Below, piece after piece: positions 12,191 to 59,341 of a stretch of DNA of 64,000 nucleotides. The stretch is from Candidatus Omnitrophota bacterium. Lineage in GTDB: Bacteria; Omnitrophota; Omnitrophia; Omnitrophales; Aquincolibacteriaceae. Both the position numbers and the translations under genes were made by a program. Each line of letters begins with the position of its first letter. The first letter of the stretch is position 1. The notes beneath the pieces were generated by a model. The model had not been told where the DNA came from. It did not search any database and saw nothing but the letters and a program-made list of their open reading frames with translations. The stretch lies in contig JAKLFP010000002.1 of NCBI GenBank assembly GCA_022711115.1, forward strand, positions 143,674-207,673, written 5' to 3'.

Positions 12191-12192
12191 CG

Positions 12193-14117: not shown

Positions 14118-14118
14118 C

Positions 14119-15821: not shown

Positions 15822-15839
15822 AGAAATGGACCTCCTGTG

Positions 15840-17138: not shown

Positions 17139-17162
17139 GAGATCCGTCCTATTTCTTTGAGG

Positions 17163-29956: not shown

Positions 29957-31384
29957 CTAAGACTTAAGAAAAGAATCGATTGCCTGCGCGGCCTGACGTC
30001 CCTGGCTGATGGCCCACACCACAAGCGAAGCACCGCGAACAGTATCCCCAGCCGCAAAAATTCCGGGGACCGAACTCATATAATTTCCGTTCGTTGCGAC
30101 ATTGCCGCGAACATCAAATTGAACACCGAGATCGGCAAGAAATTTTGAGTGTTCGACATGGACAAAACCCATGGCCAGAAGCACCAGATCCACTTGAACC
30201 ACAAAATCAGATCCCGGGATTTCCTTCATGAGATATTGTCCCGTAGTTTTATCCATTTCCCAATGAACTCGTTTGCAATGAGCTTCTTTGACCCTTCCGT
30301 CTGCGCCGACAAACTTGCTAGTCGTAATGGCCCAGTCGCGATCACAACCCTCTTCATGGGAAGTGGAAGTTCGAAGGATCTTCGGCCAGTTCGGCCATTC
30401 CGGATTCCATGGTTCCTTCCAATCCAACGGTTTGGGAAGAATTTCAAATTGATAAACCTTGGATGCCCGCTGGCGGTTCGACGTGCCCACACAGTCCGAT
30501 CCCGTATCGCCGCCGCCAATCACCAACACATTTTTTCCTTCGGCAGAAATGATCTGCCCCGCATGAACCTCTCTGGCAATTAATTTATTAGAAAGCGTTA
30601 AGAACTCGAGTGCAAAATGAACGCCTTGCAACTCACGCCCCGGAATTTTGAGGTCACGGGGTTCGCCGGCTCCCATGGTTAAGAGAATGACGTCAAATTT
30701 TTTCTTTAATTCCGCGGCCAAAACATCGACCCCGACATGAACCTTTGTCTCAAACCTGACACCTTCACTTTTCATTTGCTCGAGGCGACGGTCGATCACC
30801 CATTTCTCGAGCTTGAAATCCGGGATCCCATACCTCAAAAGCCCGCCGATTTTTGCTGATTTTTCAAAAAGCGTCACTGAATGGCCCATGCGACGTAGCT
30901 GTTGGGCTGCCGCAATTCCAGCAGGGCCAGATCCGATGACCGCTACTTTTTTCTTTGTTTCAATTGCGGGAGTCTTCGGCCTGACCCAGCCTTCGGCAAA
31001 CGCCTTTTCAATGATGGCAAGTTCAATTTGTTCAATAGTGACGGGTGCTGAGTTAATCGACAAGGTGCAAGCCGTTTCACACGGTGCAGGACAAACGCGC
31101 CCTGTGATCTCCGGCAGATTGTTTGTAAGACTCAAGCGCTCATAAGCTTCTTTCCACTGCCCGCGATAAACCGCATCATTCCACTCTGGAATCAAATTAA
31201 AAACGGGACAGCCAAGTGCATGACAGAATGGAATCCCGCAATCCATACATCGTGCACCCTGCTTATGGATTTCCTCTGAAAGCAACGGTGCTGTGATTTC
31301 TTTATAATCCTTAAGGCGTTCCGCAATTGCCCGCTTTCCGGATAGAACCCGCTGATATTCTAAAAAACCATCCGCTTTCCCCAT
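29957..31384 (-). CDS. gltD: Glutamate synthase (NADPH) small subunit
   Basis: 4Fe-4S Cys clusters (CMDCGIPFC...CPAPCETAC), FAD/NAD Rossmann motifs (VAVIGSGPAGIAAA, VIGGGDTGSDC). Its start overlaps the gltB stop (TAATG). Confidence 0.9.
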   Translation of the reverse strand: MGKADGFLEYQRVLSGKRAIAERLKDYKEITAPLLSEEIHKQGARCMDCGIPFCHALGCPVFNLIPEWNDAVYRGQWKEAYERLSLTNNLPEITGRVCPAPCETACTLSINSAPVTIEQIELAIIEKAFAEGWVRPKTPAIETKKKVAVIGSGPAGIAAAQQLRRMGHSVTLFEKSAKIGGLLRYGIPDFKLEKWVIDRRLEQMKSEGVRFETKVHVGVDVLAAELKKKFDVILLTMGAGEPRDLKIPGRELQGVHFALEFLTLSNKLIAREVHAGQIISAEGKNVLVIGGGDTGSDCVGTSNRQRASKVYQFEILPKPLDWKEPWNPEWPNWPKILRTSTSHEEGCDRDWAITTSKFVGADGRVKEAHCKRVHWEMDKTTGQYLMKEIPGSDFVVQVDLVLLAMGFVHVEHSKFLADLGVQFDVRGNVATNGNYMSSVPGIFAAGDTVRGASLVVWAISQGRQAAQAIDSFLKS

Positions 31385-34300: not shown

Positions 34301-35907
34301 ACAAAGCTCATCAAGGACATGACAAGATTTTCACGATACGGATCGATCGGCGGATTGGTGACTTGGGCAAAAAGTTGCTTGAAATAATTGTAAAGGAGTT
34401 GCGGACGAGTTGATAACACGGCAAGCGCCGCATCGTTCCCCATGGAACCCACGGGCTCTTGCGCATTTTCGGCCATCGGTCTGAGAATTATATTTTCGTC
34501 TTCAAGCGTATACCCAAAAATGCGCTGACGGACCGCCAGCGTTTTTTGATCGACCTCCACCGGCCCTGGAACCTGCAATAATCCCCGCAGTTCGATCTTG
34601 TTCTCTTCAAGCCACTGCCGGTACGGTCGGTGCCTTGAGATGGCGGATTTGATCTCATTGTCCTTGATCACCCGTTTTGACGCCGTATCCACCAAAAACA
34701 TTTTCCCTGGGGCGAGTCGTCCCTTTTCAAGAATATCCGGAGGATTCAAATCCAGCACACCCACCTCAGAAGCCATCACCACAAGCCCGCTTTTAGTGAT
34801 CACAAACCGCGCAGGCCGGAGACCGTTTCGGTCTAGTGTGGCGCCGACCTTCACTCCGTCCGTGAATGCAATCGCCGCAGGACCGTCCCACGGCTCCATA
34901 ATAGCCGCATGGTATTCAAAAAACGCACGCTTGGCCTCGCTGATGTGGTATTTAGCGCCAAAGGCCTCCGGCACCATCATCATCATCGAATGTTCCGCCG
35001 AACGTCCTCCCATTGTCAAAAGTTCGAAGACATTATCAAAAATAGCGGAATCGCTTAAAGAGGGATTGATGATTGGTAAAAGCTTTTTGATTTCAGCGCC
35101 GAATAAATTGGAAGAAATCCGGACTTCGCGGGCCATCATCTTATTAATATTCCCGCGGAGGGTATTGATCTCACCGTTATGCGCCAAAAAACGGAACGGG
35201 TGCGCGAGAGGCCAGGATGGAAAAGTATTCGTGGAATAACGCTGGTGAACGACCGCAAGAGCACTGATAAAATCGGTATCAAGAAGATCCGGATAGAAAT
35301 CCGCAAATTGCGGAGCGGCAAACATGCCTTTATAAACAATCGTACGGCACGAAAGCGAAGGGATATAGAAATCCTCCACAGACCATCCTAGGCTTATGGC
35401 CTCGTTCTCTAGAACCTTTCGCAGAATATAGAGTTTACGCTCAAGAGCGATAGCTTCAAGACCTTCAAAAACAACAAAGACCTGCCAAATGGACGGCATG
35501 GCAGCACGCGCCATTTCGCCAAGACAATCCGGCTGAATCGGGACTTCACGCCACCCAAGCACCTTGCCACCTTCTTTGGCAGTCTGTGCCGCAATCATTT
35601 TGCGAGCGCGTTCGGAATCGTTTTCACTGCGCGGCAAAAACACCATTCCCGTACCATATTGGCTTTCCCCGGGAAGTTTGAAATTCAGAGTTTTGCCGAA
35701 AAACTTGTGCGGCATTTGGATGATCATGCCTGCACCGTCACCGGTCTTGAGATCACCTCCGACGGCACCTCGATGCACCAGGTTACAAAGGATCTTCACC
35801 CCGTCCCGGACAATCTGATGGGAACGCGTCCCGTCAATCCTGACGACAAAACCTACCCCGCAAGCATCATGCTCATAACTGGGATCATACAATCCATTAT
35901 GTTCCAT
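31384..35907 (-). CDS. gltB: Glutamate synthase large subunit. ATG at 35907; the track start at 35919 is TTG
   Basis: N-terminal amidotransferase with the Cys nucleophile (EHDACGVGF), the FMN/TIM-barrel domain, and the C-terminal GXGXG beta-helix domain. About 1507 aa. Confidence 0.95.
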   Translation of the reverse strand: MEHNGLYDPSYEHDACGVGFVVRIDGTRSHQIVRDGVKILCNLVHRGAVGGDLKTGDGAGMIIQMPHKFFGKTLNFKLPGESQYGTGMVFLPRSENDSERARKMIAAQTAKEGGKVLGWREVPIQPDCLGEMARAAMPSIWQVFVVFEGLEAIALERKLYILRKVLENEAISLGWSVEDFYIPSLSCRTIVYKGMFAAPQFADFYPDLLDTDFISALAVVHQRYSTNTFPSWPLAHPFRFLAHNGEINTLRGNINKMMAREVRISSNLFGAEIKKLLPIINPSLSDSAIFDNVFELLTMGGRSAEHSMMMMVPEAFGAKYHISEAKRAFFEYHAAIMEPWDGPAAIAFTDGVKVGATLDRNGLRPARFVITKSGLVVMASEVGVLDLNPPDILEKGRLAPGKMFLVDTASKRVIKDNEIKSAISRHRPYRQWLEENKIELRGLLQVPGPVEVDQKTLAVRQRIFGYTLEDENIILRPMAENAQEPVGSMGNDAALAVLSTRPQLLYNYFKQLFAQVTNPPIDPYRENLVMSLMSFVGRQWNLLDETPEHCRQLKLSHPVLTNDDVHRLRNSTLEHLKVATLSMIFNPKAVIEGLENAVEMLCKEVEKKVDEGCSLVILSDREVGPENAPIPALLAATAVHQYLIRRGKRYLVGLVLETGEVREVQHFACLIAYGVNAINPYLAFETLADLKNRNVLSAGLTLEAAIENYITSIKKGLLKVMSKMGISTIRSYRGAQIFEAVGLNDEFVAKYFPGTASRINGIGIKVIEKETLMRFQEAFKEPQAPVETLNSGGNYQYRLFSEKHLWSPLAVTFLQKAVREGDYAAFKKYSSEVNDIQKNLCTLRGLFRFKKGSPVPIEEVESADSIIKRFVSSAMSFGSISKETHETMAIAMNRLGAASNSGEGGEDEVRYEPLPNGDSKKSAIKQVASARFGVTINYLVNSKELQIKMAQGAKPGEGGQLPGHKVDEMIAKVRHSTPGVMLISPPPHHDIYSIEDLAQLIFDLKNANPEARISVKLVSEVGVGTVAAGVAKGKADMVLISGHDGGTGASPVSSIKYAGSPWEIGLAETQQVLIRNKLRGRIRVQTDGQLKTGRDVVIAALLGAEEFGFGTASVVSLGCIMMRKCHLNTCPVGVATQNPELRKRFAGKPEHLMNFMKFVAQEVRELMAELGFRKFEDMVGRVDLLEVNDAIEHYKAKGLDFTKVLAKPEVPEGGSVRCLTSPQPDFSLSLDPALIRKAKNAIEFKQPMVLEQRIRNCNRTVGTTLSYEIAKRYGLQGLPEDTLHIKFDGSAGQSFGAFLAHGIIFELEGDANDYFGKGLSGGRIIVYPSRSATFRPQDNIITGNVNLFGATSGEVYIHGRAGERFCVRNSGALAVVEGVGDHGCEYMTGGRAIILGETGVNFAAGMSGGIAYVLDENQLFDTRCNLEMVDIEPVVDPEDQKFLKSHIERHVKFTGSQYAKGILASWDEMLPRFVKVMPMDYKKALARLKERQMRSSEVADMTEEVFP

Positions 35908-36077
35908 GGACAGCCTCAATCTGATAAAACTTTTTAAAAACGTTAAACGAAAAAAATATCGGACAGCACATTAGCTATTCAGATGATGCAAGATTAGGGC
36001 AGAGGCAGGCAGATGCTATTCTACAGATTTTTAGTACTGCTTCAAGATTAAATTTCAAACACTTTTTGTAATTATAA

Positions 36078-45900: not shown

Positions 45901-46742
45901 CTAACCTACCCTGGCAAATCCGGGTATTGCCAGGGTTAGTCCACCAAGCAGCTTTTTATAATCTGAAGTTCTCTTTGCGTATCTTGATGCTCTGCCACAA
46001 ATTTCTCGTATGCCCTAGGGACTATTGAGAAGACATGGTCGAAATGGCATAAATCTTCGCCTTGGTTTTTCTGGATATATTCCCGATAAGATGAATACTC
46101 CCAGTCCGAAGGCGATGAAACTAGCCCTGCAGAACATGGATTTATATGAATGTAACGCGACAAATGCAACGCCTGAGCATCGTTGTTGACAAGAACATAT
46201 TGGAATCGCGATTCCCAAAGCGTACCTTTTCGGCGGATTTTGAGATTGAAATAGCGCGAGTAACTATGAAGTACAAGCCGCATAAAATCCGATATACCCC
46301 TTTGCGTAACCTGCGCCAAAAGCAAATGCAAATGAGTCGGCATAACGCAATAGGCAATAATTTCAATACGTTCATCACTTTGAGAATTTCTTTTATCATT
46401 TTTATCATCTAAAAGAGAAGGCCGTTGGGACTTGGAAAAAGAGGTCTTGGGATGGGCGCTTTTGTAAAACCGAAGCGTTTCAATCATCCTCAGGAATTCG
46501 TCAGGATAGCGAAATATTTCAAATCCCGCGATACTTCGAGCGAAGACGTGATAAAAACAACCCGTTACAAGCGGAACTTTCCGTTGGGGCATATTCGCGT
46601 TGTCAAAATACCTTTCTTGATTGTCAGTGGGGCTACCGACCCCTTGTCAAATCCTGGATTTGACAAAACTAAGAGTATCATAATATTGAATAAAAATCAA
46701 ATATAAATTGAAGAAAAAGCATGTCAAATCCCGGATTTGACA
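45901..46742. mobile_element. REPtron-like unit: the RAYT gene flanked by REP-like hairpins at 45901-45939 (cctggcaa...ttgccagg stem with an aatccgggta core), 46645-46665 (tgtcaaatcctggatttgaca) and 46722-46742 (tgtcaaatcccggatttgaca)
   Basis: Two perfect 21-nt palindromes differ by one base, and a third related hairpin overlaps the RAYT stop. The shared core is aaatcc(c/t)gg. Confidence 0.5.
45936..46592 (-). CDS. IS200/IS605-like HuH tyrosine (Y1) transposase of the REP-associated (RAYT) type
   Basis: HuH motif YCVMPTHLHLLL, catalytic-Tyr region LSRYIHINP. About 218 aa, with no second (TnpB) ORF. Flanked by REP-like palindromes. Confidence 0.8.
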   Translation of the reverse strand: MPQRKVPLVTGCFYHVFARSIAGFEIFRYPDEFLRMIETLRFYKSAHPKTSFSKSQRPSLLDDKNDKRNSQSDERIEIIAYCVMPTHLHLLLAQVTQRGISDFMRLVLHSYSRYFNLKIRRKGTLWESRFQYVLVNNDAQALHLSRYIHINPCSAGLVSSPSDWEYSSYREYIQKNQGEDLCHFDHVFSIVPRAYEKFVAEHQDTQRELQIIKSCLVD

Positions 46743-46832: not shown

Positions 46833-49800
46833 TTACGCGGCTTTCGACGTCGCCTGGATCGTCAGGATATCGGACCAGAGCTTCGCCAAACCCGCTAATT
46901 TCATCTCATCGATGCCAAAGTACGCCTTCACCCGCTTCAGAACATCATCGCCAAGCTGACGGTTCAAAAGCGCCATGGCATCCATATTCTTGATCGATAC
47001 GTTCAGTTGTGCCGCCTTCATGGCCAAGAGACCTCTCAGACCCGCGTAGGCCTTGTTCCCTTTTTGGCTGTCAAACACCGTTCCGCTGAATTCCTTGTCT
47101 AGCATCTCCGGCATATCTTCGATCAAAAGAACCAGATGCTCTCCTCGATCCATCTCGGCAGTCAAGGCAGGATCCATCTTCCGAAGGTCACGGAAAACCT
47201 CACCCTCCGCCGTGCGGATCGCTTGGGCCGCTTGAAGCGTATTCGCAAAATTAATCGTCATACGGTTATCGATCAGCGAGCCTCGATAATCCGTCGTCTG
47301 CTGGATATTATCCCTGATATCCGCTTGGATTGCCAACTGCTCCGCTACCGAAACCTTATCGTTAACAACCAAAATACGGACAACCGCTCTGGGGTTCATT
47401 CCCAGCTGAAGTTTCAACTCATTCAGCCTCGCGGCATCGGGCAGTTCTTTCATCACGATCAGCACACCGCCAATATCGGTCGAAACAGAAATCACGGCAT
47501 TCGTCATGATCGACTTAGCAACCTCGGATTCGAGGAACTTGGTCCAATCCATTTCTCCGGTCTTGAGTGCGACCAATGTCGTCAAGGCAGTCACAACTTG
47601 TTCCACAGTCGGATTGCCAAAGGCAGGCACTACGATTTTCGCGACCACATCATTCAGAGTATCTGTTCCATACTTAAAAGGTTCACTTTCCAATTTTCTC
47701 AGGATTTCCGGTGCTAGCAGCCTCCTGACCTGATCAACCAATTCCTGGCGGACTTCGATCTCCAACTTGATCACCGGCAATTGAGGCCCCGCCTCCCTCA
47801 CCTCGGAGCGGGTCAATCGCCCCTTCAGTGCTAATTTAACAGCTTCGATAGTTCCAGGTCGCTGGCTCCGATCAGTTTCAGCTTTTAGGATACTATCTTC
47901 AAGAGCATTCATGCTGTTCGCAAAAAAGTCATTCCTCGTTTCCAACACGGCCATATGATGCAAGCTAGGGTATGATCCAGTCCTGATGGCAAAAGCGTCC
48001 AACCAATGCATGACATCTTCCTCACGAGTTTGGATCGTGTCAGCCGCAGCTATCGTTATTTCCCATGCGCTGACCACGCGATCAATGGTCTGCATTATGT
48101 TCGCAGATAATTTCCCCCTCACCTCGGAGCGGGCAGGACTGCGATATACAGTTTCTCCGCGCAATGTAATTTGCGCCGGTAACATTAAACCATCCGTTGT
48201 TTCTATCCGTAATTTGGAAAATTTTCCGCCAATATCTCGAAAGGGCACATGCCTGGCTTCGTCAAGATCAGTGACGAGTATACGCATCATTTTCCCTACC
48301 GATTTTCCTTTAGCATCAAGGGCCGTGACAAACATAACACTCCCTGCATTTAAACCATTTTGACGGATCGGATTAAGATTCAGTCGAACAAGATCTTTGG
48401 CATTGATCGGCTGATCTAGCCGCAGGGTGTATTCTCTTGCCTGCGTTGTTTTTCCATCCACGTGTCCAGTTATGATTTGGGTACCTAAGCCTATCACATG
48501 GAATTGACTCATTCTTACTTCGGAACGAGGCCCTCCTAAAAATCCTTCTGCCCCTCCTCCTCCGATGTCCGGCGTAAAGTCATATCGGCCTTGTTTCACA
48601 TTGATGGTTGCCGATTCAGGGCCTGTTAACGTAAATGAAAAGGTTCTCGCTTCGTGCACATTGATCCCCTGAACATTATTGATGTCAATCGTGTAATTCT
48701 GAGGCGTGTTCAAAACTCCAGTCAAATTAGCACGCCAGGTCTTCCCTTCGGCATCTTGAATCTCATAGCCGACAACGGGAGCGTTTGTACTCCCTAAGGA
48801 AAAGGTGATCCCATTGGGAAACTGCGTCGGGAGATCCACATTATTGGTGTAATTTGCAAAAACACCCCCAAAACTCGCCGTATTTTCTCCCACATAATTG
48901 AATGTGAATGTGTTCGTCTCCGTAACCTTGAGCTCCCCAACCACATTCGTACTGCTCACAAAATTACCCAACCCAACAAATGGCAATGGCGTGACGCTGG
49001 CAGTTTGATTCCCAGGCGGAACATCGGGAGCAAAATTCCAAGAACCCATGACTAGATCAGCGTTCTTAGGACCTTGCCCTTCAAAAACATAGACCATCTG
49101 ACGGACCTGCGTCGGATCAATCTTACGAGCCATTTGGTCCAAAGGCAGCGTGTATTTTTGCGAGCTGGGAGTAATACCGCTTAAAATGCCTGTCCAAGTA
49201 TTCGTATTGGCATCTTTAACCTCGACCTTCAAATGATCCAGATTGGGACTCGCAATCGAAAAGGTTAATCCGTTCGGATAAAGACTTTGAAAGTTAATAT
49301 TATTGGTATATTCAAACACCGTTCCCGCATAACCGGTAGCATTCGTGCTCGAGTAACTCATGCTCATGGTGTTTGTCCCGGTAATATTATTGAAAACCAC
49401 TTCACCTCCTGGCCCTGTGAAATTCATCGGATTAACTTGCGGCAGCGGTGTAATGGCAGCACCCTGATTGCCAGGAGGAATCGAGGGAACATAATCCCAA
49501 GATCCTAAAACAAGATCCGCGCTCTTGGGACCTTGCCCTTCAAAAACATAGACCACCTGCCTCACCTGAGTCGGATCAATCTTTTGTTGAAGGAGGTTGA
49601 GCGACAGCGTGTATTTTTGTAAACCCGGAGTGATGCCGCCAAGCATCCCTCTCCAAGTGTTGGTATTCGCATCTTTGACCTCCACTTTCAAGTGATTCAG
49701 ATTGGGGCTTGCGATCGAAAACGTCAGACCATTCGGATAAAGACTTTGAAAGTTAATGTTATTGGTATATTCAAACACAGTGCCCGCATATCCCGTAAAA

Positions 49801-52800
49801 TTCGTACTCGTATAACTCGCAGTCAGCGTATTGGTGCCCGTGATATCATTGAAAACCGATTCACCAGTCGGACCTGTAAAGGTCGTCGGATTCACTTGCG
49901 GCAGCGGCGTGATGGCAGTACTTTGATTTCCGGGCGGAATGATAGGAACGTAATCATAAGGACCAAGCTCAATCACATAGGTCTTCTGCCCTTCTCCTGC
50001 GGCGGTGAACACAATCTCCCGGATCTTGGTCGTATCGATCCCGTATATCTGATTCAAATTCACCGTGTATTTCTGAGGCGTCTCGGTAATGTCGCTAACA
50101 TTGCCACGCCAAGATCTTCCGTTCTCATCCTTGATCTCGAGAACCAACGAAGTGGCATCCAAACTGCCTACCGAAAAGGTAAGTCCATTCGGGAATTGAC
50201 TCGCAAAATCCACGTTATTGGTGAAACTTGAAAAAACACCCCCGAAGCTCGCGACATTGATACCGCTGTAACTCAAACGAAGAGCATTGGTCCTGATCAC
50301 CGTAACATCGGCAACCGTGTTCGTGCTGTCGGTGTAACTTCCCGTATTATTATTGACAGGCAACGGCGTGATCAAAGCACCCTGATTGGCTGCGGGCAAA
50401 ATCGGAGGAACATAGCTGTAGGGTCCAAGTTCGATCACATAGGTCTTCTGCCCTTCCCCTACCGCAGTGAAAACGATCTCTCGGATCTTAGTCGTATCGA
50501 TCCCGAATATTTGATTCAAGTTGACCGTATGCTTTTGAGCAGTCGCGCTAATACCGCTGATATTCCCACGCCAAACGTTCCCGTTCTCATCCTTGATCTC
50601 AATGCCCAAAATCGTCGCATTCGTGCTGGAAACTGAAAAGGTAAGACCATTGGGAAATGCGCTTGCAAAATCGACGCTATTAGTAAAACTTGAGTAAACC
50701 CCTCCATAACTATCCGCACTCGGTCCCGCATAATTCAGCATCACAACATTGGTGTTTTGCGCTGTGGCCAGAACCGATGCGTTCGTGCTATTAAAAGTAC
50801 CGAAGTTATTAAACGGCAAAGGGGTGATGTTGGCCGCTTGATTCCCAGGCGGAATATCGGGAATAAAATTCCAAGAGCCCATGACAAGATCGGCACTCTT
50901 CGGGCCTTGCCCTTCAAAAACATAGACCATCTGACGGACCTGCGTCGGATCAATCTTCCGAGCTATTTGGTCCAAAGGCAGCGTGTACTTTTGCTGATCC
51001 GGCGTGATGCTGCTAAGCATGCCAGTCCAGGTGTTGGTATTGGCATCCTTAACCTCGACTTTTAAATGATCCAGATTGGGACTGGCAATCGAAAAGGTCA
51101 GACCATTCGGGTAGAGATTCTGAAAGTTGATATTATTCGTGTATTCAAACACTGTCCCCGCATAACCGGTGGCATTCGTGCTCGCATAACTCATGCTCAG
51201 GGTATTGGTCCCAGTCACATTATTGGTAACTACCTCGCCTGTTGGTCCTGTAAAAGTGGTGGGATTGACCGTTGGAAGCGGTGTAATGTCCGCGGTTTGA
51301 TTGCCGGGAGGAATCGACGGAATATAGTTAAAATTTCCCCAATCCACATAGAGCGTTTTCTGTCCCTGACCTTCGATCACAAGCGTGATTTCCGTGATAT
51401 GCGTCTGATCAAGCGCTGGAGCATATTGCGTCATAAAACTGAGCGGAATATTAAAGCCTTTTCCTGAAGGCGTCAGATTGGATAGATATGCCGCAAAAAC
51501 ATTACCTCTCCCGTCCTTGAACTCAATCTTCACCCTTGAAAGATTGGGACTCGCTGCGAAGAGTCTCAAACCAGTCGGATAATTGGTCACCAAATTGATG
51601 GGGTTGTCTGCAAAATTGAATGCGGGACCCGCATAACTGGCAGTTCTGGCGCCGTTGACATTCACGGTCAAAAAGTTTTGCTCGTTTACCGTGTTCGTGA
51701 TCGTCGTACCGTCGTTGGAGTCAAAACTCCATAAATTCTGAACGGTCGGAAGCGGAGTCGCGGCTTTCTTCACGGCGCGGTAAACCTGCATGGGATTCAG
51801 CGAGAAATTTTGAATGAAATCAAGCGGCTGACCGGGTAAAACGAATTGATTGGTAACCAAAGTTCTCCACGGGCCGTTCACCTGCGCTGCGGCTTGAAGA
51901 TCAATGGCTCCAGGGCTGTAAGGCGCTTCCACGCGTACAGTTCCATTTTCACTAATAGACATCTGAGGCGGCATGAGCCCAGCCTCTGCGGCGTTTGTCA
52001 TTGTCACAGGCGCTTGGGATATTCCTACCACACTCATCAAACCAAACATAAGGGTCCGCAAAAGCGACGGCCTCATACTTCTGACAAACTGCTCTTGCGG
52101 CTGCGCCATCTCTTGACCCCTCATCTCCGAACGCATGCGGCTCCGAATAGCTTCATCAAGCGCGCGCAATGCGGGCTCATCTATTAGACCAAATTCAACT
52201 AATTTTTCCTCCACTTGCCTGCTTGCGTTCGCCAGTGCGAGGGCATTCCGCACGGCCCTCGTCGGATCAATTTTGAAAGCTACAACATCCGCCACTGTTT
52301 CGAGAGCCCAATCCGACTCGTCTCCCTGCACCCATTGCAAAAATTTCTCGATACCCGCATCAACCGCCCCCCTCACTTCGGATCGGGAGGCAACAGCGGT
52401 TTTGACCGCATCGACAAGTTGAACACCTGAAAAGGGCTTTGACAAAAATCCAACACTGGATTGTGCTACTGCTTTTCCTTCCACTGCGCTCAACCCTTCT
52501 GTCCCACCGCTCATCACAAGTGCCGCAATCGAATTGTTTTTAGCCCGGGCAGCTTCGACAATAACACTTTTTATAACCCCATCGCTTTTTTGAAAGGTAT
52601 CCTGACCATGCAGGATCCTGTCCGTGACCAGTACGTCAAAATCGTTTTCACTGATGGCTTGACGAGCGCCGTCAACCGTATCTGCGAATATCACGATCGC
52701 CCCTTCGCTCTCAAGTATTGCTTTTACTACTTCAAGAATCATGGGCTCATCATCAACAGCAAGAATCCGTTTTCCCGCAAGATTGATATCCGTAGGCAGA

Positions 52801-55800
52801 ACCGCCCTCACCTCGGAGCGGGTGGATTCGTCATATCCCTCAAGACGGATGTGGAGAGGCGATTGCCATTGCATCGTGGGGGTACTTGAACCAGTCCAGG
52901 AATTATATTGGGAAATTTTGTTGATATGCCCCTTGGGGTCTATCTCAAGCAGATAAAGCTGGTCCCCTAGCCGCTGGGGCGCTGTGTCCCTGAAACGTGC
53001 CAATTTAACAGAGAACTTTCCGCCTTCCCAGGAAATCCGACCTACGATCAGCATACCGCGCCAACCGAAATGCAATATACCGCCAAGCGGCTTGGACAGA
53101 ACCAAATCCTGACCCCAAAGACCTCGTAATAGCGTAAACCATGGCCTTGTAATCATCCTGAAACCGAAATCGACCCCACGAGAAATCGGCGCTAACAGAC
53201 GAAAGCCAGAAACACTTGTTAATGAACGAAGCAATTTGTTATCAGCCTCTGGATCTCTTCCATTCCCTACAAGCATCGGCGATAGCGGACGTCCTGTGGC
53301 ATCGAGATTGTCTGTCGCTTTCAAAAAGGCTCTCTGCAGACGCTGATAAATTTCATAACTTGGCATGGCACGTCCATAAGCCAACCACACCAGAAAAGTC
53401 AAAAAGATAAAATCATGCCGCTTGAGATAAATGACCTGGTTGTTCGCGGTAACCAAAAATGCCCGGCTTGATTCGCTCAAACGTCCGGCAATGCTCTGAA
53501 TCGTCTGTCTGGGAACGACGCTTTCATCATTCGCAAGCGCGTCTTTTTCCAGTTGTTGGATAAACGGCCTCCAATTTTCCTGATCCGTTGCCAGCATTTC
53601 GATTGCCGTGTCGATATTAGACCTCACCTCGGAACGGGCGGATTCGTCGCGTTTCATTCGTTCTTGTCTGGCTATGAACCACTTCCCAAAATAGTAGAGG
53701 CTGGTGCCCGCTAAAATTGCCGCCGGAACCACCATAGCCCCACGAATGATCCTGCCGAGTGAAGCAAAATTTATGACCGCACGATCCGATAGTGAAGCCT
53801 TGCCTTGCGGAGGTCTGACATTCACAACATCACGAATGAATGCCGTTGCGGCAGGATATCCGGGCTTACTGAACGGAAAAGTCGTCAGCCCTTTTAATAC
53901 AAAATCAATTTGGCCGCGTGTATTTCTTTGATGCTCATCCCATGCCATCACAAGGATCATGGCCCGCATGACTGTGAATTCCGATTCGGGGTGCACGGTC
54001 ACGCGGGTTGCGCCGCCGGTCCGTACCAGCCGCGTCCCACTGATCATTCCAATCCGTGTCGGAATGCCCCCGGCTCCGACCACTTCGGCTCTTTCCAAAT
54101 CGCTTTGATTGATAATAAAATCCCGGGAAATGAGACTTCCGAAGATTCGCGCATTCCAGAGACTGATGAGCCACAAGGCCCTCTGGTCCATCTCCGAAAA
54201 ATTTCTCACGGCCGGGTATTTAGCCAGAAATTCCGATTTTTTCTGAGCCCAGAGATTGTTGATATGCCCATTGACTGTCTGGACACGTTCTACCGGTGTC
54301 TTTTCCTCAAAATAGGTCCAGGCATGAAAGCGCTGATACTTTCGAGCGTCATCGATCCACTGATTCACTGACGGATAGGCCTTCCCAAGCCGGTATTCCT
54401 GAAATTGAGGAAAACCTTGCGCCTTGAGCGCGGCAGCACCTGCCGACTGCACAGGTCCTTGTGTTCTGGGAGCCTCCCCTGCTTCCACGGTTAAAGCACT
54501 TGCCAAAAGACCCAAACTGGCGGCAAAAAAAGTACGTCGCGTCACGGGCTGAAGTATTTCACGTTCTGACACTCTCAGTTCGGATCGCAAATTTTCTCTC
54601 GTCTCTCGAGCGCTTTCAATCAACGTCCCAAGTCTTTGGAACTCACTCGGCATGTTCAACGAAACGCCTGGCTGGGCCCGCAATCTTTCCGCAGCGGTTA
54701 TCATGGCTGCTAATTGCCCGTCTGCCTCTGCATCAACTGTTCCGCTTTGGACACGATCCTGTAATGCCCAAAATTGGCGTTCCAATTTTTTCACATCATC
54801 CGGCGTCGCCCTCAATTCGGCACGGGCCGCCCCAGAAGAAGAAAAGCCTAAACGACGTTCAAAGAAAGCGCGAGCTGCCCCTGCATAGTCGCGAAACTCC
54901 GGTCTACCGCTTGCCGGTTGATACGGAATTTCGGAAACTCGAAGTTCGTTTCGTCTTGTCGAATCCGCATGGGCAACCACAAGACTTGCGCCCAAGGCCA
55001 TCGCATCATATAAATGCGTCACATGAAACGCCTGCATTTCCTGACCCGGCTTAAAAAGCTGAGGAAAACTGACGACGAGACCGGAAACTGCCTGACCCTT
55101 TTGATCAACCGCCCTTGATTCCGCACGGAGTTCGATCGCTTTTATTCTGCCTGTTGCTTTCAGTTTATCGATCAGTGTGTTAATATCGGCAATGTCAAGC
55201 GTCCGCAGTTCCGAGCGGCCGGTAGATGTTCCTATGAAAGGGCGAAAACCGTTAACCCTCTCCCCAAGCGCCCAGCGAAACTGTTTGACAATGAACGCCG
55301 GAACCGCCGCTTGATACAGATGGATCATGTTTAACATTTCACCAAGAAAATATCGCAGTCTCTTGCCCCGTAATTCCGAGCGGCCGGTCGTTGCGCCAGT
55401 CTTTTCAATCTTCATTTCTCTCAGAGAACTGTCATTAGCATCATTCACAACTATCGTTTCACGCCCACTCCTGATAAACATTTCTTGAACATTAGCGGGC
55501 AAATCCTGCATCGTCAGACTAGATGCCGGTAAGTCCATCTTGGTTACTGGCGCGTTCGGCGTCGTGCCCCCCGCAACATTCACAGCCATCTTTGTGCCAG
55601 CCGTCGTATTCGTAGAGCTGAGCCGTGCAAGCGCCGGAGAATTCGTCGAAAAGATGAAAACACCACCATCTCCTTTATTTAAATAATATCCGGACCGAGC
55701 CTCCCAATTCATCAGATTATGTGTCTCTTCCGTTCTTACACCATTTATGGCAACCTCAAACGTTGTCGCCATCCGTCCATTCGGTAGTTGGAACAAATTC

Positions 55801-57983
55801 GGTGACATCGTGCCTGCATTCCCTTGCGCTCGCGCCACGTTGAGTGACAACGCCAAACCCATCAACGCTAACCCTATCTTCTGCCACCAATTCGATCGCA
55901 GCTCAGAACGACCTGCTAATGCCGGAGCCGGAGTTTTAGCCGCTGTCTCGACGAGCGCCAATGATGGTACTGCAATGGATGTTGCTCTGGAAGCCGGCGC
56001 AGTCGCATTCACAATCGTCGCTTTTTCTCCCATGACCGCAGATTGACTTGTTGCGGTCGCGGTACGAATCATGGCGGTCGTGCCTTGCTGAACGGCTATA
56101 TCCCATGTCTTGGTACTATCATTAAATACAAGCGTTCGAGTTCCCGTTTTACCATCTACCACGTACGTCATCGACCCTCCGCGCGTGGTCATGATCGGTA
56201 CTGCGCCTTTATCCGCCATATATCGGAAATTCTGATCCATAGTTGCGGTCGTTGTGATATCAGCCGCTGCGTCCAAGGCCGCGCTGACCACGAGTCGAAG
56301 CGTTTTAGAGCCGTCCTTGCCCATCGGATCTCCAGTCATCGTGACAGCATTTTCAATGGTCGCAATGTCAAAACGGGTCTTGGTGCGCTGTAACATGGTA
56401 TCGCGGTAAAGCTTCTCATCACTTTTTTCGCTGAGACGCGGCGTGACGATCCCGTAGCTGATGTCATGATCGCGGAAGATCTCGCTCAAACCGTCCGTGT
56501 GATAACCCCCGGTAATCAGAACCGCTTTGCCGATATTTTCTTCTGAAAGTTTTTTTTGGATTTGCACAAAAAAGGCATCTTCACGTTTCCTCGCGAGATC
56601 ATAGAAATCAATGCCGCTTGTGAAAAGTTCGGACATGCGTTTGGAAAAATCGGGCGGCATGACTTTCTGTTTCATAAGCGATTCGTCATTTTTGGAGACG
56701 GCCACCGCCTCCGTCAAACGCCCGACCATGGACTCGATGGTGAGGATCTTTTGTTTGTCCTGCACTTTGCGCGATTCCGTGCGGTTGAGTTCCAGGTGCA
56801 GCAGTTTGCGGAGGAGTTCGCCATCCCGATAAAGTTCGAGAAGATTCTTCTGCGCGGGCTCCTTGGCCAAGGTATCAAGCATTTTAGCGAAAAGGAATTC
56901 GATCTCTTCAAAAAGAGCTTTCGGATCCAGTTCATTTTTGAGGACCACATAACCGGCATAAAGACTGAAATTCGGATAATCGCTGAACTTGAATCCTCTG
57001 GGTCCGGCTTCCGCCGCCAGTTGTTCCAGAACCCATCGGGGCAATATTTCTTTCGCATCCTTACCCGTACCGGCCCTGCCCATACTGATATTGCCTTCCT
57101 GAAAATTTTCGATGGCCCGGACAAGTGCCTCCGAAGTTCTTTTTTCGCGAAGAAACTTCACGAGGGAATCCCGTTCGGCCAGCGCCTTGTTCCGCTCCAC
57201 GTCTTTTTCCATTGTCTGAATAACAAGAAGACGCGTGATTTGCGGCCAACCGACCTGGGCGAACAGGCTTTCCAGGTCCACGTTCAGAACCTTCTTCGCT
57301 TGTTTGACAAGCGATTTTACATAGGGCAAAAATTCGCGCCGCCCCATCTCAAAGCTTTTCCAATCCGCGATAAGCCCGCGTGTATCCGGTGTAAACGTTT
57401 TGGACGCAACTTGCTCCAGCCTCACGTCGAAAACTCGAAAGAATTTTTCCACATCCGTTTCGGCCCCAAAGACTTTCTTCAAGGCGTTGTAATTTTGTTT
57501 ATAGAGGGAAGCATTTTCGATACCGATCGCCTCCACTTCCGGCGGTGCCTCCAGCAAATAAAGTTCGGCACCCGTCAATTCGCCCTGTTTTGCCAGATTA
57601 TCGGAAAGCTTCAGATTGCGTTCCTTGTCCGGGAAAAGACGGAGATAATCCGCATTCAGTTTTTCAGAAGCGCCTTCCACGAACACGGTTTTGATCGCGT
57701 ATTTTTTGTTCAGGTATTCCAGGAGCTGCTTGATCTTGATTTGCGCCTGATAATTGGCGTGGGCATTCTGAATGTGAAGCACAAATTTCGGATCTTGTTT
57801 GACTGGCGCCTCATAAATTTCATCGATGCTTGCAAGGTCCGCAGGAATATCAAGGCTCAGAAAATTAGGGATTTCCCGAGGGTTGGCTATTTCGATGCGA
57901 GCGCCCGGATCTGCCCATGTGCACTGCGTGGTCAAAAAACAAACTACTGTTATTATCGCGACCACTTTTAAATACTTTTTCAT
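46833..57983 (-). CDS. Giant modular protein (3716 aa) of unknown function. It has an N-terminal signal peptide and an embedded CheY-like receiver domain. About 7 tandem 150-aa beta-sandwich repeats are present. At least 13 RSE[LV]R junction motifs occur, and internal Sec/Tat-like hydrophobic segments follow some of them
   Basis: An uninterrupted 11.15-kb frame. ATG at 57983 is preceded by a GGGGG Shine-Dalgarno. The signal peptide is MKKYLKVVAIITVVCFLTTQCTWA. The receiver domain is RILAVDDEPMILEVVKAIL...VLVTDRILHG...LSKPF. See findings for the repeats and motif. Confidence 0.8.
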   Translation of the reverse strand: MKKYLKVVAIITVVCFLTTQCTWADPGARIEIANPREIPNFLSLDIPADLASIDEIYEAPVKQDPKFVLHIQNAHANYQAQIKIKQLLEYLNKKYAIKTVFVEGASEKLNADYLRLFPDKERNLKLSDNLAKQGELTGAELYLLEAPPEVEAIGIENASLYKQNYNALKKVFGAETDVEKFFRVFDVRLEQVASKTFTPDTRGLIADWKSFEMGRREFLPYVKSLVKQAKKVLNVDLESLFAQVGWPQITRLLVIQTMEKDVERNKALAERDSLVKFLREKRTSEALVRAIENFQEGNISMGRAGTGKDAKEILPRWVLEQLAAEAGPRGFKFSDYPNFSLYAGYVVLKNELDPKALFEEIEFLFAKMLDTLAKEPAQKNLLELYRDGELLRKLLHLELNRTESRKVQDKQKILTIESMVGRLTEAVAVSKNDESLMKQKVMPPDFSKRMSELFTSGIDFYDLARKREDAFFVQIQKKLSEENIGKAVLITGGYHTDGLSEIFRDHDISYGIVTPRLSEKSDEKLYRDTMLQRTKTRFDIATIENAVTMTGDPMGKDGSKTLRLVVSAALDAAADITTTATMDQNFRYMADKGAVPIMTTRGGSMTYVVDGKTGTRTLVFNDSTKTWDIAVQQGTTAMIRTATATSQSAVMGEKATIVNATAPASRATSIAVPSLALVETAAKTPAPALAGRSELRSNWWQKIGLALMGLALSLNVARAQGNAGTMSPNLFQLPNGRMATTFEVAINGVRTEETHNLMNWEARSGYYLNKGDGGVFIFSTNSPALARLSSTNTTAGTKMAVNVAGGTTPNAPVTKMDLPASSLTMQDLPANVQEMFIRSGRETIVVNDANDSSLREMKIEKTGATTGRSELRGKRLRYFLGEMLNMIHLYQAAVPAFIVKQFRWALGERVNGFRPFIGTSTGRSELRTLDIADINTLIDKLKATGRIKAIELRAESRAVDQKGQAVSGLVVSFPQLFKPGQEMQAFHVTHLYDAMALGASLVVAHADSTRRNELRVSEIPYQPASGRPEFRDYAGAARAFFERRLGFSSSGAARAELRATPDDVKKLERQFWALQDRVQSGTVDAEADGQLAAMITAAERLRAQPGVSLNMPSEFQRLGTLIESARETRENLRSELRVSEREILQPVTRRTFFAASLGLLASALTVEAGEAPRTQGPVQSAGAAALKAQGFPQFQEYRLGKAYPSVNQWIDDARKYQRFHAWTYFEEKTPVERVQTVNGHINNLWAQKKSEFLAKYPAVRNFSEMDQRALWLISLWNARIFGSLISRDFIINQSDLERAEVVGAGGIPTRIGMISGTRLVRTGGATRVTVHPESEFTVMRAMILVMAWDEHQRNTRGQIDFVLKGLTTFPFSKPGYPAATAFIRDVVNVRPPQGKASLSDRAVINFASLGRIIRGAMVVPAAILAGTSLYYFGKWFIARQERMKRDESARSEVRSNIDTAIEMLATDQENWRPFIQQLEKDALANDESVVPRQTIQSIAGRLSESSRAFLVTANNQVIYLKRHDFIFLTFLVWLAYGRAMPSYEIYQRLQRAFLKATDNLDATGRPLSPMLVGNGRDPEADNKLLRSLTSVSGFRLLAPISRGVDFGFRMITRPWFTLLRGLWGQDLVLSKPLGGILHFGWRGMLIVGRISWEGGKFSVKLARFRDTAPQRLGDQLYLLEIDPKGHINKISQYNSWTGSSTPTMQWQSPLHIRLEGYDESTRSEVRAVLPTDINLAGKRILAVDDEPMILEVVKAILESEGAIVIFADTVDGARQAISENDFDVLVTDRILHGQDTFQKSDGVIKSVIVEAARAKNNSIAALVMSGGTEGLSAVEGKAVAQSSVGFLSKPFSGVQLVDAVKTAVASRSEVRGAVDAGIEKFLQWVQGDESDWALETVADVVAFKIDPTRAVRNALALANASRQVEEKLVEFGLIDEPALRALDEAIRSRMRSEMRGQEMAQPQEQFVRSMRPSLLRTLMFGLMSVVGISQAPVTMTNAAEAGLMPPQMSISENGTVRVEAPYSPGAIDLQAAAQVNGPWRTLVTNQFVLPGQPLDFIQNFSLNPMQVYRAVKKAATPLPTVQNLWSFDSNDGTTITNTVNEQNFLTVNVNGARTASYAGPAFNFADNPINLVTNYPTGLRLFAASPNLSRVKIEFKDGRGNVFAAYLSNLTPSGKGFNIPLSFMTQYAPALDQTHITEITLVIEGQGQKTLYVDWGNFNYIPSIPPGNQTADITPLPTVNPTTFTGPTGEVVTNNVTGTNTLSMSYASTNATGYAGTVFEYTNNINFQNLYPNGLTFSIASPNLDHLKVEVKDANTNTWTGMLSSITPDQQKYTLPLDQIARKIDPTQVRQMVYVFEGQGPKSADLVMGSWNFIPDIPPGNQAANITPLPFNNFGTFNSTNASVLATAQNTNVVMLNYAGPSADSYGGVYSSFTNSVDFASAFPNGLTFSVSSTNATILGIEIKDENGNVWRGNISGISATAQKHTVNLNQIFGIDTTKIREIVFTAVGEGQKTYVIELGPYSYVPPILPAANQGALITPLPVNNNTGSYTDSTNTVADVTVIRTNALRLSYSGINVASFGGVFSSFTNNVDFASQFPNGLTFSVGSLDATSLVLEIKDENGRSWRGNVSDITETPQKYTVNLNQIYGIDTTKIREIVFTAAGEGQKTYVIELGPYDYVPIIPPGNQSTAITPLPQVNPTTFTGPTGESVFNDITGTNTLTASYTSTNFTGYAGTVFEYTNNINFQSLYPNGLTFSIASPNLNHLKVEVKDANTNTWRGMLGGITPGLQKYTLSLNLLQQKIDPTQVRQVVYVFEGQGPKSADLVLGSWDYVPSIPPGNQGAAITPLPQVNPMNFTGPGGEVVFNNITGTNTMSMSYSSTNATGYAGTVFEYTNNINFQSLYPNGLTFSIASPNLDHLKVEVKDANTNTWTGILSGITPSSQKYTLPLDQMARKIDPTQVRQMVYVFEGQGPKNADLVMGSWNFAPDVPPGNQTASVTPLPFVGLGNFVSSTNVVGELKVTETNTFTFNYVGENTASFGGVFANYTNNVDLPTQFPNGITFSLGSTNAPVVGYEIQDAEGKTWRANLTGVLNTPQNYTIDINNVQGINVHEARTFSFTLTGPESATINVKQGRYDFTPDIGGGGAEGFLGGPRSEVRMSQFHVIGLGTQIITGHVDGKTTQAREYTLRLDQPINAKDLVRLNLNPIRQNGLNAGSVMFVTALDAKGKSVGKMMRILVTDLDEARHVPFRDIGGKFSKLRIETTDGLMLPAQITLRGETVYRSPARSEVRGKLSANIMQTIDRVVSAWEITIAAADTIQTREEDVMHWLDAFAIRTGSYPSLHHMAVLETRNDFFANSMNALEDSILKAETDRSQRPGTIEAVKLALKGRLTRSEVREAGPQLPVIKLEIEVRQELVDQVRRLLAPEILRKLESEPFKYGTDTLNDVVAKIVVPAFGNPTVEQVVTALTTLVALKTGEMDWTKFLESEVAKSIMTNAVISVSTDIGGVLIVMKELPDAARLNELKLQLGMNPRAVVRILVVNDKVSVAEQLAIQADIRDNIQQTTDYRGSLIDNRMTINFANTLQAAQAIRTAEGEVFRDLRKMDPALTAEMDRGEHLVLLIEDMPEMLDKEFSGTVFDSQKGNKAYAGLRGLLAMKAAQLNVSIKNMDAMALLNRQLGDDVLKRVKAYFGIDEMKLAGLAKLWSDILTIQATSKAA
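48540..51950. repeat. About 7 tandem coding repeats of about 456 bp (152 aa) inside the giant gene, in two alternating sequence subtypes
   Basis: Units begin ...IPPGNQ.A.ITPLP and end ...(F/Y)(I/V)P. Subtype 1 carries TFTGPTGE...KVEVKDANTNTW; subtype 2 carries IKDENG..WRGN. Several units are at least 85-90% identical at protein level. The antisense frames repeat as well (MIQIGACDRKRQTIRIK... at 49692 and MIQIGTGNRKGQTIRVE... at 51066). Confidence 0.8.
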
Positions 57984-58178: not shown

Positions 58179-58910
58179 TCAAGTTTTTTCAACAAAACGG
58201 ACAGCCAGACCTAATTGTTCCTTTCGAACTTCCTTGCGGCATATCTCCCCTGAAATTTGATATTCTTCCGGAAAGTTTGCGCTCGGAAATATATGGATCT
58301 CAACCTTAAGGCCCTCGATAGGATTCAACGCATCAATCCTATGAGAAACCCCAAGGTCAAGATATTCCCCGAAAAGCCCCCCCTCACTGATATTTGTCGC
58401 AATGGCGGTGGTTTGGATCATTTCTCCGCTTGCGGTAAATATCTTTAATTCCAGCGGAACCGCAACGTGCATGCGGTGGCTCCGCCGCTGTTCTAGCTGA
58501 TAGCCAAGCGACTCCTGGGGGGTTTTAACACCCTTGGCCATAATCTTCTTGTCGGGATCCTTAACGAAAAGAAAGGGCCCAAAAGATTCGGCCACCTGCT
58601 TCTCATCCGAGCAGATATCCACTTTCCCCGAGGGAAAGTTATCCTCGATACAGTGGGCCATTTCTGGCGTCACCCCGTAAAGCACGCTATGCTTGGGACG
58701 GATGCAAACCGTCAAAAGACGTCGCATCCCTATCGCATCCAGAGGACCCGACTCTTGGAAGTTTAGGATAATCTGCTGCAAGCCGTAGCGCCGGATGTTT
58801 TTCTGAATCTTCCAGGCTACCTCCTGCACCGATTCAAAGGTCGGCATGCCCTTGAGATCAAAAACCGAAACCCCGCCGATTTCTCGCGTTGAATAATGGA
58901 ATTTAGTCAT
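58179..58910 (-). CDS. STAS (anti-sigma-antagonist-like) - PilZ fusion protein; putative c-di-GMP receptor. ATG at 58910; the track start at 58997 is GTG
   Basis: N-terminal STAS-like fold (MTKFHYSTREIGGVSVFDLKG...). C-terminal PilZ motifs QRRSHRMHV (RxxxR) and NISEGGL (D/NxSxGG). Confidence 0.6.
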   Translation of the reverse strand: MTKFHYSTREIGGVSVFDLKGMPTFESVQEVAWKIQKNIRRYGLQQIILNFQESGPLDAIGMRRLLTVCIRPKHSVLYGVTPEMAHCIEDNFPSGKVDICSDEKQVAESFGPFLFVKDPDKKIMAKGVKTPQESLGYQLEQRRSHRMHVAVPLELKIFTASGEMIQTTAIATNISEGGLFGEYLDLGVSHRIDALNPIEGLKVEIHIFPSANFPEEYQISGEICRKEVRKEQLGLAVRFVEKT

Positions 58911-59341
58911 AACGCATCTTCCTCTTTTTGAACCGTTCGACCCTCCAAAGAATTCGGTGGATTCTGGGATAGATGTACCCTGAAAGAATATCTCCACGCT
59001 GGATGACGTAGGCCAATTGAGGACCCCCTTTCCCGTTCATTTTCATACTGCGAAAATCTTGAAGATCATGTGTCATTTTCATCACTCCTCTTTTTCAAAT
59101 TGTCCATAATATCATTTAACAACTTTTACTATGTTCTAACAAAAACATAACTCAGTAAAATACTTTTGTCAATATGTTATATATATAAAATATTTAATTA
59201 TATATTTTATTAATATTTATAAATATATATATCAAAAACAAGCAAATACATAACAAAAATGAGCCAAATTGACTCACTCTAAAAAACTTAAATCACTACC
59301 TTGGAAAGTCCTTGCCGGAGGCAAGAAGATTTTTAGAAGAT

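Follow-up and report, generated by a model that had tools for sequence, protein, structure and literature searches.

In a 64,000-nucleotide stretch of a Candidatus Omnitrophota genome (contig JAKLFP010000002.1 of assembly GCA_022711115.1, positions 143,674 to 207,673 of the forward strand; hereafter, the window), we analyzed a giant gene in which segments resembling export signals lie directly downstream of copies of a short junction motif. One unbroken open reading frame (ORF) on the minus strand, at positions 46833-57983, encodes 3716 amino acids (aa) and encloses both segments to which an initial annotation of this DNA had drawn attention, one of them resembling a Sec-type signal and the other a twin-arginine (RR) signal. 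The association itself is confirmed, and lies far beyond chance once relatives of the protein are counted: the junctions mark module boundaries, junctions and signals are statistically coupled, and in one relative the module behind a junction is a whole secreted glycoside hydrolase. As an explanation we tentatively favor, with somewhat short of even confidence, a reading in which three segments of the window protein are N-terminal-type targeting signals, each opening one module of a modular precursor protein.

A junction motif divides the giant protein into modules

The motif RSE[VLMI]R occurs 11 times in the giant ORF, compared with 0.01 copies expected from composition, and is absent from every other ORF of at least 100 aa in all frames of the 64-kb window. 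Three degenerate copies (RNELR, RPEFR, and RAELR) bring the total to 14 junctions, which divide the protein into modules M0 to M14 (Table 1). The junction DNA is almost invariant in the 3' half of the gene (CGY TCC GAG GTG AGG), and across the 14 window junctions and the 245 RSExR copies in L006-L084 the codons used within the motif depart far from background: the first arginine is encoded by CGY in 83% of cases (background 43%), the serine by TCC in 55% (21%), and the final arginine by AGG in 31% (13%). This bias exceeds what the amino acids require, and could reflect selection on the DNA or RNA, homogenization, or copying of junction DNA.

M0 (aa 1-691) opens with a normal signal peptide and carries a conserved N-domain, which belongs to the Tiki/TraB/EreA/ChaN superfamily by fold similarity and by its conserved His/Glu/His positions (the invariant residues are H75, E103, H495, and R467). 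That superfamily also includes esterases and heme binders, and a Pfam search of the window protein found no protease domain. When every module was searched against Pfam and NCBIfam, a receiver domain in M9 was the sole match; it spans aa 1740-1861 and is framed exactly by the junctions at aa 1722 and 1867. The repeats that form the body of M11 have no Pfam or PDB sequence match, and PDB sequence searches with M7, M8, and M11 of the window and with modules of two relatives returned no match. For the conserved C-domain the predicted model is weak (predicted local distance difference test score, pLDDT, of 63), an alpha/beta sandwich whose structure matches are only generic and Rossmann-like.

Two further observations support modules as units of change. 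The variant HOW58948.1 (P0008) differs from the window protein solely by an exact tandem duplication of a junction together with M2, the end-points of which fall within shared junction DNA (ACCGGCCGCTCGGAA is common to both flanks). In addition, even relatives that share 57-65% identity in the N-domain lack any counterpart of M2-M13.

Signal-like segments open three modules of the window protein

Both of the segments quoted in the initial annotation exist behind RSELR within the one ORF, where translation of the minus strand gives RSELR-VSEREILQPVTRRTFFAASLGLLASALTVEA at 54478-54587 and RSELR-SNWWQKIGLALMGLALSLNVARAQ at 55822-55910; the hydrophobic part of the former starts 13 residues past its junction and that of the latter (at aa 703) 6 residues past. 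The window protein contains nine uncharged hydrophobic stretches, one of which is the N-terminal signal peptide and three of which begin 6, 13, and 21 residues past a junction (aa 703-717, 1151-1166, and 1977-1989). Each of these three has basic residues, then a core of 13-16 residues, and then a small-x-small site (ARA, VEA, and AEA). By our own estimate, the coupling of junctions to hydrophobic stretches within this protein alone has P~0.03.

The first of the three, in M1, had been described as a Sec-type hydrophobic region ending in AxA, and inspection together with a hydropathy script bears this out: aa 697-721 comprise K702, the 15-residue core IGLALMGLALSLNVA, and A-R-A/Q. The segment departs from an ordinary Sec signal in its position, which is internal, at residue 697. 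The second, at the start of M7 (aa 1138-1169), had been called a near-textbook twin-arginine signal. It does show the minimal T-R-R-x-F-F pattern, its T-R-R-T-F-F agreeing with an S/T-R-R-x-F-L-K-type motif at the boundary of the n- and h-regions, but the label was overstated, because the curated models of twin-arginine translocation (Tat) signals TIGR01409 and PF10518 give no match, unlike for a segment from a relative described below. This RR segment lies 1137 residues into the ORF, with no combination of Shine-Dalgarno (SD) sequence and start codon at the junction, and would acquire an N-terminal position only after processing; its C-terminal flank, EAGEAPR, is acidic. M7 as a whole (residues 1138-1449) consists of the RR signal, a domain, a C-terminal transmembrane (TM) helix, a basic tail, and a junction, and taken alone reads as an RR signal, a domain, and a C-tail anchor. 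The third segment, at the start of M11, also holds the sole plausible internal SD sequence with an ATG in the ORF (aa 1959).

The initial annotation further placed hydrophobic helices around 53100-53500. Both exist, but VVPAAILAGTSLYYFGKWF (aa 1418-1436, within 53673-53741) lies slightly outside that range, and the stretch FIFLTFLVWLAYG in M8 is too short to be called a TM helix. One of the four internal segments of the window protein is of TM length.

Table 1. Features of the giant modular gene, ordered along the protein (positions are those of the window; aa, position in the protein)
Feature	Position	Strand	Remarks
Giant modular ORF	46833..57983	(-)	3716 aa; own AT-rich upstream region and Shine-Dalgarno-like sequence
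N-terminal Sec-type signal peptide of the whole protein, MKKYLKVVAIITVVCFLTTQCTWA	57912..57983	(-)	equivalent N-termini in relatives
M0, conserved N-domain	56379..57851	(-)	Tiki/TraB/EreA/ChaN-like fold with large helical insert
Junction RSELR	55896..55910	(-)	aa 692-696; immediately upstream of Sec-like segment
M1 start, Sec-type signal-like SNWWQK-IGLALMGLALSLNVA-RA/QG	55821..55895	(-)	basic n-region, 15-residue h-region, ARA
55-aa unit, TGRSELR plus module M2	55224..55388	(-)	tandemly duplicated in 3771-aa variant HOW58948.1
Junction RSELR	55368..55382	(-)	aa 868
Junction RSELR	55203..55217	(-)	aa 923
Degenerate junction RNELR	54939..54953	(-)	aa 1011
Degenerate junction RPEFR	54891..54905	(-)	aa 1027
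Degenerate junction RAELR	54810..54824	(-)	aa 1054
Junction RSELR	54573..54587	(-)	aa 1133; immediately upstream of RR segment
M7 start, twin-arginine-like VSEREILQPV-TRRTFF-AASLGLLASALTV-EA/G	54477..54572	(-)	no TIGR01409/PF10518 match
TM-length helix at C-terminal end of M7, GAMVVPAAILAGTSLYYFGKWFI	53673..53741	(-)	aa 1415-1437; followed by basic tail and next junction
Junction RSEVR	53622..53636	(-)	aa 1450
13-residue hydrophobic stretch inside M8, FIFLTFLVWLAYG	53373..53411	(-)	aa 1525-1537; 70 residues from junction
Junction RSEVR	52806..52820	(-)	aa 1722
M9, response-regulator receiver domain	52401..52766	(-)	no signal; PF00072, 34.5 bits (cut-off 30.2)
Junction RSEVR	52371..52385	(-)	aa 1867
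Junction RSEMR	52119..52133	(-)	aa 1951
M11 start, third signal-like segment, GQEMAQPQEQFVRSMRPSLLR-TLMFGLMSVVGIS-QAPVTMTNAAEA/G	51975..52118	(-)	follows RSEMR; absent from the initial annotation
M11 body	48528..51974	(-)	~7 tandem repeats of ~150 aa; boundaries near PPGNQxAxITPLP
Junction RSEVR	48513..48527	(-)	aa 3153
Junction RSEVR	48117..48131	(-)	aa 3285
Junction RSEVR	47796..47810	(-)	aa 3392; same place, just before conserved C-domain, in relatives
M14, conserved C-terminal domain of the family	46836..47795	(-)	generic alpha/beta fold

Junctions and signals are coupled across relatives

The claim that signal-like segments open junction-delimited modules in a non-random manner holds well beyond the window, as the same grammar recurs throughout the family. 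Across 49 relatives of at least 1200 aa, containing 299 junctions (R-[SAP]-E-x-R) and 236 hydrophobic segments, 56 of the segments start no more than 30 residues past a junction, in intervals that make up 8.6% of the sequence (P=2e-12), with a median of 10 residues from junction to segment. Motifs of the form RR-x-F-[LIVMFA] followed by an uncharged run have four distinct occurrences in the six frames of 1.33 Mb of related DNA, and all four, including that of the window, sit 3-14 residues past a junction. The segment SRRQFLTTVAAAAGALMLPGGALGA in one relative (L052) passes both Tat models (TIGR01409, 20.5 bits with a cut-off of 16.7; PF10518, 22.7 bits with a cut-off of 22.7).

In the relative with the closest head (L035, CAIJDY010000166.1), the junction at residue 1299 is followed by SRRDFVTTTFVAAGFVALTGC, which combines an RR motif with a lipobox, and the module that begins there (ORF residues 1304-1909) matches an endo-beta-1,2-glucanase (PDB 6imu, E=8.7e-89). 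The alignment pairs module residues 52-506 with residues 34-493 of the 505 in the 6imu chain, and by this homology the module reads as an entire secreted enzyme whose own signal stands where one would be expected. In two other relatives (L026 and L043), signal-bearing modules have weak matches of beta-helix/NosD-like and NAGPA-like type, and a module without a signal in L020 contains three receiver domains; receiver-domain modules begin at the usual distance past a junction and carry no signal.

The initial annotation had proposed that formerly independent exported proteins were concatenated in one frame, and had named a lack of stand-alone homologs as a sign to the contrary. The idea gains from the L035 locus, where a junction, an RR motif with lipobox, and a full homolog of a stand-alone enzyme follow one another, and from the receiver modules that lack signals. 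It gains nothing from M1-M8 of the window protein, for which no stand-alone homolog was found in the collections searched; for these modules, the contrary sign named in the initial annotation is thus present.

The giant ORF belongs to a family confined to Omnitrophota

The giant ORF belongs to an Omnitrophota-only family with a common layout, in which a signal peptide and a Tiki/TraB-like N-domain are followed by a middle that changes fast and by a conserved C-domain, always with a junction directly before the latter. Relatives are encoded at 343 loci in GTDB genomes, and about 40 of the 79 family ORFs retrieved are expanded to at least 2000 aa, some to more than 3900 aa. The Tiki/TraB-like head family is also multi-copy, several metagenome-assembled genomes having 3-5 separate loci (among L006-L084), such as bin-136 with five.

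In most of the expanded relatives, RSEx/SExR are the commonest four-residue words. Position 4 of the motif depends on the genome (V, M, A, S, T, L, or K), and one locus (L009) has RAEKR; the window protein and 49 expanded relatives have at every module boundary the conserved site R-[SAP]-E-x-R, as would be expected of proteolytically processed polyproteins. Loci L006-L084 contain 245 copies of RSExR, at a density per 1000 aa of 1.94 in family ORFs versus 0.28 in other ORFs of the same loci, and even family members of about 1000 aa are 17-fold enriched in R[SA]E[VLMI]R (12 observed versus 0.7 expected). The non-family matches are concentrated in a few large neighboring ORFs. Large ORFs with 5-10 RSExR copies each lie beside family genes in L065 (1-9774), L038 (3-9824), L074 (several), and L080 (13541-21874); some such junction-bearing neighbors may be tails of adjacent family members that run off the fetched stretch.

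A different arrangement is found at L005 (GCA_016196555.1, JACPXL010000034.1), where the family member P0011 (1073 aa, 10001-13222) is without the usual C-domain and is followed, in another frame, by a separate 3386-aa ORF (13267-23222). This second ORF has at least ten [QR]SE[ML]R junctions, near-invariant at the level of DNA (CAA TCC GAA ATG/TTG CGG), with TM helices after five of them. Tandem paralogous single-TM modules are present both in P0011 and in the 3386-aa ORF; a profile built from four such modules gave no match and was too divergent for a scan of the loci. We considered the giant as a fusion of P0011 and its downstream neighbor, and rejected this origin because the neighbor is without the family C-domain.

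A precursor of separately targeted modules as the tentative explanation

On the reading that we favor, each module would have the anatomy of a complete protein, with its own signal peptide, Tat-type signal, lipoprotein signal, signal-anchor, or C-tail anchor. In the window protein, the module starts would thus present one Sec-like, one twin-arginine-like, and one further signal-like segment (51975-52118), and modules with cytoplasmic domains such as the receiver would carry no signal. The middle of the protein would be a fast-turnover string of unrelated modules, each placed after R-[S/A/P]-E-x-R. The chain would be cut at or beside the junctions and the pieces routed separately, with signal-bearing modules crossing or entering the inner membrane and the others remaining in the cytoplasm; the Tiki/TraB-like domain is, by association alone, a candidate processing enzyme. 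A flavivirus-like variant is equally compatible, in which the chain would be threaded co-translationally, internal signals would restart translocation, and signal peptidases would cut on the outer face.

The best-supported reading of the anatomy is that the modules are complete, separately targeted proteins in one frame. Cleavage of the chain at the junctions is most likely; this step, the candidate protease, and use of the Tat pathway are all inferred from sequence. A more far-reaching version would have these genes encode true bacterial polyproteins, each an operon written as one frame, from which a dedicated protease (possibly the Tiki/TraB-like head) releases, by cutting R-S-E-x-R, dozens of unrelated proteins (cytoplasmic regulators, enzymes exported through Sec, Tat, or lipoprotein signals, and membrane anchors), each then routed by its own signal; we regard this version as possible but on balance unlikely.

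Several observations weigh against a processed precursor. A single frame has been kept for 11 kb, and the chain is therefore made as one piece. The candidate protease domain has a signal peptide and would be periplasmic, whereas a threaded chain would leave 10 of the 14 junctions in the cytoplasm, and about half of the family members of about 1000 aa have no junction copy at all. With regard to targeting, the RR segment of the window matches neither TIGR01409 nor PF10518 even at E<=10; tblastn found no TatA or TatC in the window or the 84 loci (1.33 Mb, a small part of any genome); and no ordinary N-terminal Tat signal was found in that same sequence, which does not amount to whole genomes. 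The initial annotation had further implied cleavable signals at the module starts. The small-x-small sites of the window's three segments agree with this, but family-wide the post-junction segments are mostly of TM length, with a core of 18 residues at the median, and show no enrichment of AxA behind them; many are signal-anchors rather than cleavable signal peptides. In favor of separate units, 78% of post-junction segments have more lysine and arginine on the N-side, but this bias comes largely from the motif's own arginines and is weak without them (25 versus 18). Finally, M7 and M8 have no homolog among 5.8 billion proteins, and aa 692-1726 gave zero phmmer matches among 1.84 billion representatives and zero relatives in GTDB genomes and JGI metagenomes, leaving M1-M8 with no homolog, stand-alone or other, in any collection searched; as these searches missed even the query's own protein (its source seemingly being masked, or coverage imperfect), the negatives mean that no homolog was found and are no proof of absence.

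A serious rival, although we consider it unlikely on balance, is that the product is a single uncut polytopic membrane protein of alternating start- and stop-transfer helices. RSExR would then be a linker or topogenic element, held in the cytoplasm by its two arginines, and the RR helix would be inserted by Sec/YidC or passed to Tat as in dual Sec/Tat proteins. Such alternating helices, which the initial annotation had offered as its other possibility, do give a self-consistent topology: the signal peptide and four helices, at aa 703, 1151, 1415, and 1977, would put the receiver inside and the N-domain, repeats, and C-domain outside, a fit that itself speaks against cleavage, and short relatives without internal helices would also place both conserved domains outside. 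A single ORF free of stop codons, the TM length of most post-junction segments in relatives, and the lack of AxA enrichment all agree with an uncut chain; moreover, polytopic proteins with RR motifs in internal positions are known (PMC5449189, PMC3471235), and Omnitrophota giant proteins are usually read as multi-TM proteins. Against this, three of the four internal segments of the window protein have cores of just 13-16 residues, each followed by a small-x-small site, and the helix at aa 703 would be forced into an N-out orientation despite three basic residues on its N-side. Of the 25 intervals that separate one post-junction segment from the next in relatives, 17 are free of other hydrophobic segments and hence of a return helix, and a single chain would force the tandem paralogous single-TM modules into opposite topologies. 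What follows junctions also includes a consensus Tat signal, a lipobox, and an entire secreted enzyme, none of which would be expected of ordinary TM helices. Nor does the route through dual Sec/Tat insertion fit well, since in such proteins the RR helix comes last and has positive charges behind it, neither of which holds for the RR helix of the window.

It is also conceivable, but improbable, that the signals are fossils: the modules would be whole genes captured in frame in recent times by recombination at junction-coding DNA, their signals now without a role, and the whole chain would follow the N-terminal signal peptide or stay where it is made. The very fast turnover of modules, which have no homologs in close relatives, the module-sized tandem duplication ending within junction DNA, the codon bias suggesting that this DNA is copied or homogenized, and the sub-consensus RR segment of the window are all consistent with capture. 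Unselected signals decay fast, however, yet several are of consensus grade, and the junction-signal association spans many genomes and many unrelated modules. The presence of a signal also follows the type of domain, being found with the glucanase and beta-helix-like modules and not with the receivers, and donor genes were not found.

Least probable is separate translation of each module from a start at or just past its junction, which would make the signals truly N-terminal. In its favor, NTG predominates at the fourth codon of the motif in the window and in L005, seven junctions contain the SD-like GAGGTGAGG, and M11 has an SD-like sequence and an ATG three codons past its junction. Family-wide, however, many junctions have A, S, T, or K at position 4, none of which could be encoded by a start codon, and M1 and M7 have no SD and start combination, making internal initiation unlikely; L-type junctions are not SD-like, and separate translation would render 11 kb of stop-free single frame needless. 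Two related ideas were rejected on the same grounds: that the fourth codon is an ancestral start codon (relatives have A, S, T, or K there), and that the junction is an internal ribosome-binding site (the V-type copies alone are SD-like, and M1 and M7 lack a start codon).

Comparison with known systems

Among known systems, those nearest to the window family are MARTX (multifunctional autoprocessing repeats-in-toxin) toxins, polyproteins of viruses that carry internal signals, and dual Sec/Tat membrane proteins (PMC6254334, PMC5449189, PMC3471235), and each has defining features that the window protein lacks. MARTX toxins have RTX repeats and the CPD cysteine protease, neither of which was detected in the window protein, where Pfam and NCBIfam searches found only the receiver domain. 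Whereas MARTX toxins carry a Leu-X site and leave by type I secretion, the window family has the R-S-E-x-R junction as its putative cleavage site; the window protein has an N-terminal Sec signal, and family modules have Sec, Tat, or lipoprotein signals of their own.

In flavivirus and pestivirus polyproteins, an internal hydrophobic signal, terminated by a signal-peptidase site, is preceded at a distance of a few residues by a basic protease site, and products end up on both sides of the membrane; these systems are viral, operate at the eukaryotic endoplasmic reticulum, and have a known protease. The likeness to our family is one chain in which a basic junction precedes an internal signal with a signal-peptidase-like end. 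The differences are that the window family consists of bacterial chromosomal genes, has only a candidate protease, and includes Tat-type and lipobox signals.

Tat-dependent C-tail-anchored proteins, such as the small subunits of hydrogenases and formate dehydrogenases, consist of an RR signal, a globular domain, a single TM helix at the C-terminus, and a short basic tail. M7 taken alone shares this layout, but differs in being embedded at residues 1138-1449 of a 3716-aa chain and in having no cofactor motif, no homolog, and a signal that fails the Tat models.

Dual Sec/Tat proteins (actinobacterial Rieske proteins, Sco3746, and polyferredoxins) likewise have an internal twin-arginine motif, and share with the window protein the placement of the RR behind earlier hydrophobic segments and immediately ahead of a weakly hydrophobic helix (PMC5449189, PMC3471235). 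In these proteins that helix is the last TM domain, with positive charges and a cofactor domain after it. The RR helix of the window is succeeded instead by an acidic flank, an orphan domain of 250 aa, a further helix, and over 2200 more residues, which is not the RR-before-final-helix arrangement.

Within the same phylum, the Omnitrophota giants (Archaeovorin and Dockerin types, with a catalogue of 916 proteins) also have very long ORFs with many predicted TM helices, carbohydrate-active modules, and receiver domains, and are suspected of cleavage after translation. The window family ranges from 1 to 4 kaa (thousand aa) or longer, and is defined by its Tiki/TraB-like head and conserved tail. 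Papers on the giant proteins describe the cleavage points as unknown, and in one pipeline internal signal-peptide calls are thrown out as artefacts. Neither of the two main papers mentions the R-S-E-x-R junction, and nothing relevant to the motif came up in literature searches. The L035 glucanase module agrees with the cell-wall- or glycan-degrading role that has been proposed for Omnitrophota giant proteins.

Implications for Omnitrophota giant proteins

Whether Omnitrophota giant proteins are single molecules or precursors is an open question, the main paper having found its analysis blocked by the missing cleavage points. Our findings supply a family-wide candidate boundary, R-[SAP]-E-x-R, together with evidence that the pieces between boundaries resemble complete proteins with Sec, Tat, or lipoprotein signals of their own, and a candidate processing domain; giant proteins of this kind may be precursors of many separate proteins. 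The motif also provides a rule for splitting these giants into units for prediction of structure and function. If the polyprotein reading is true, the junction would provide the map of cleavage points that Omnitrophota giant proteins have lacked, and its conserved DNA would be a handle for adding, duplicating, and losing whole genes. If the chain is instead left uncut, the family would offer an uncommon example of a polytopic protein with Tat-type and lipobox signals at internal positions.

Genomic setting of the giant gene

An ORF identical to that of the 3716-aa protein is carried by four public contigs, and the gene is surrounded by housekeeping genes such as pheST, rarA, accBC, and aroQ. 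Directly upstream lies a PilZ-domain protein (the domain type that binds cyclic di-GMP), at window positions 58179-58997 (-); the exact sequence of its ORF read from the first start codon is not in the protein collection, the public annotation having a shorter gene of 243 aa. Immediately downstream is an IS200-like Y1 transposase gene at 45936-46592 (-). This gene is present on one public contig (L001, 13392-14048) and absent from the otherwise identical L002 of another sample, a difference that is an insertion polymorphism. The window contains a second long ORF (31384-35919 (-), 1511 aa), which is without RSExR junctions. GC skew is negative in all 2-kb bins of the window (1-64000) and the minus strand carries nearly all long ORFs; transcription runs in a single direction throughout the 64 kb.

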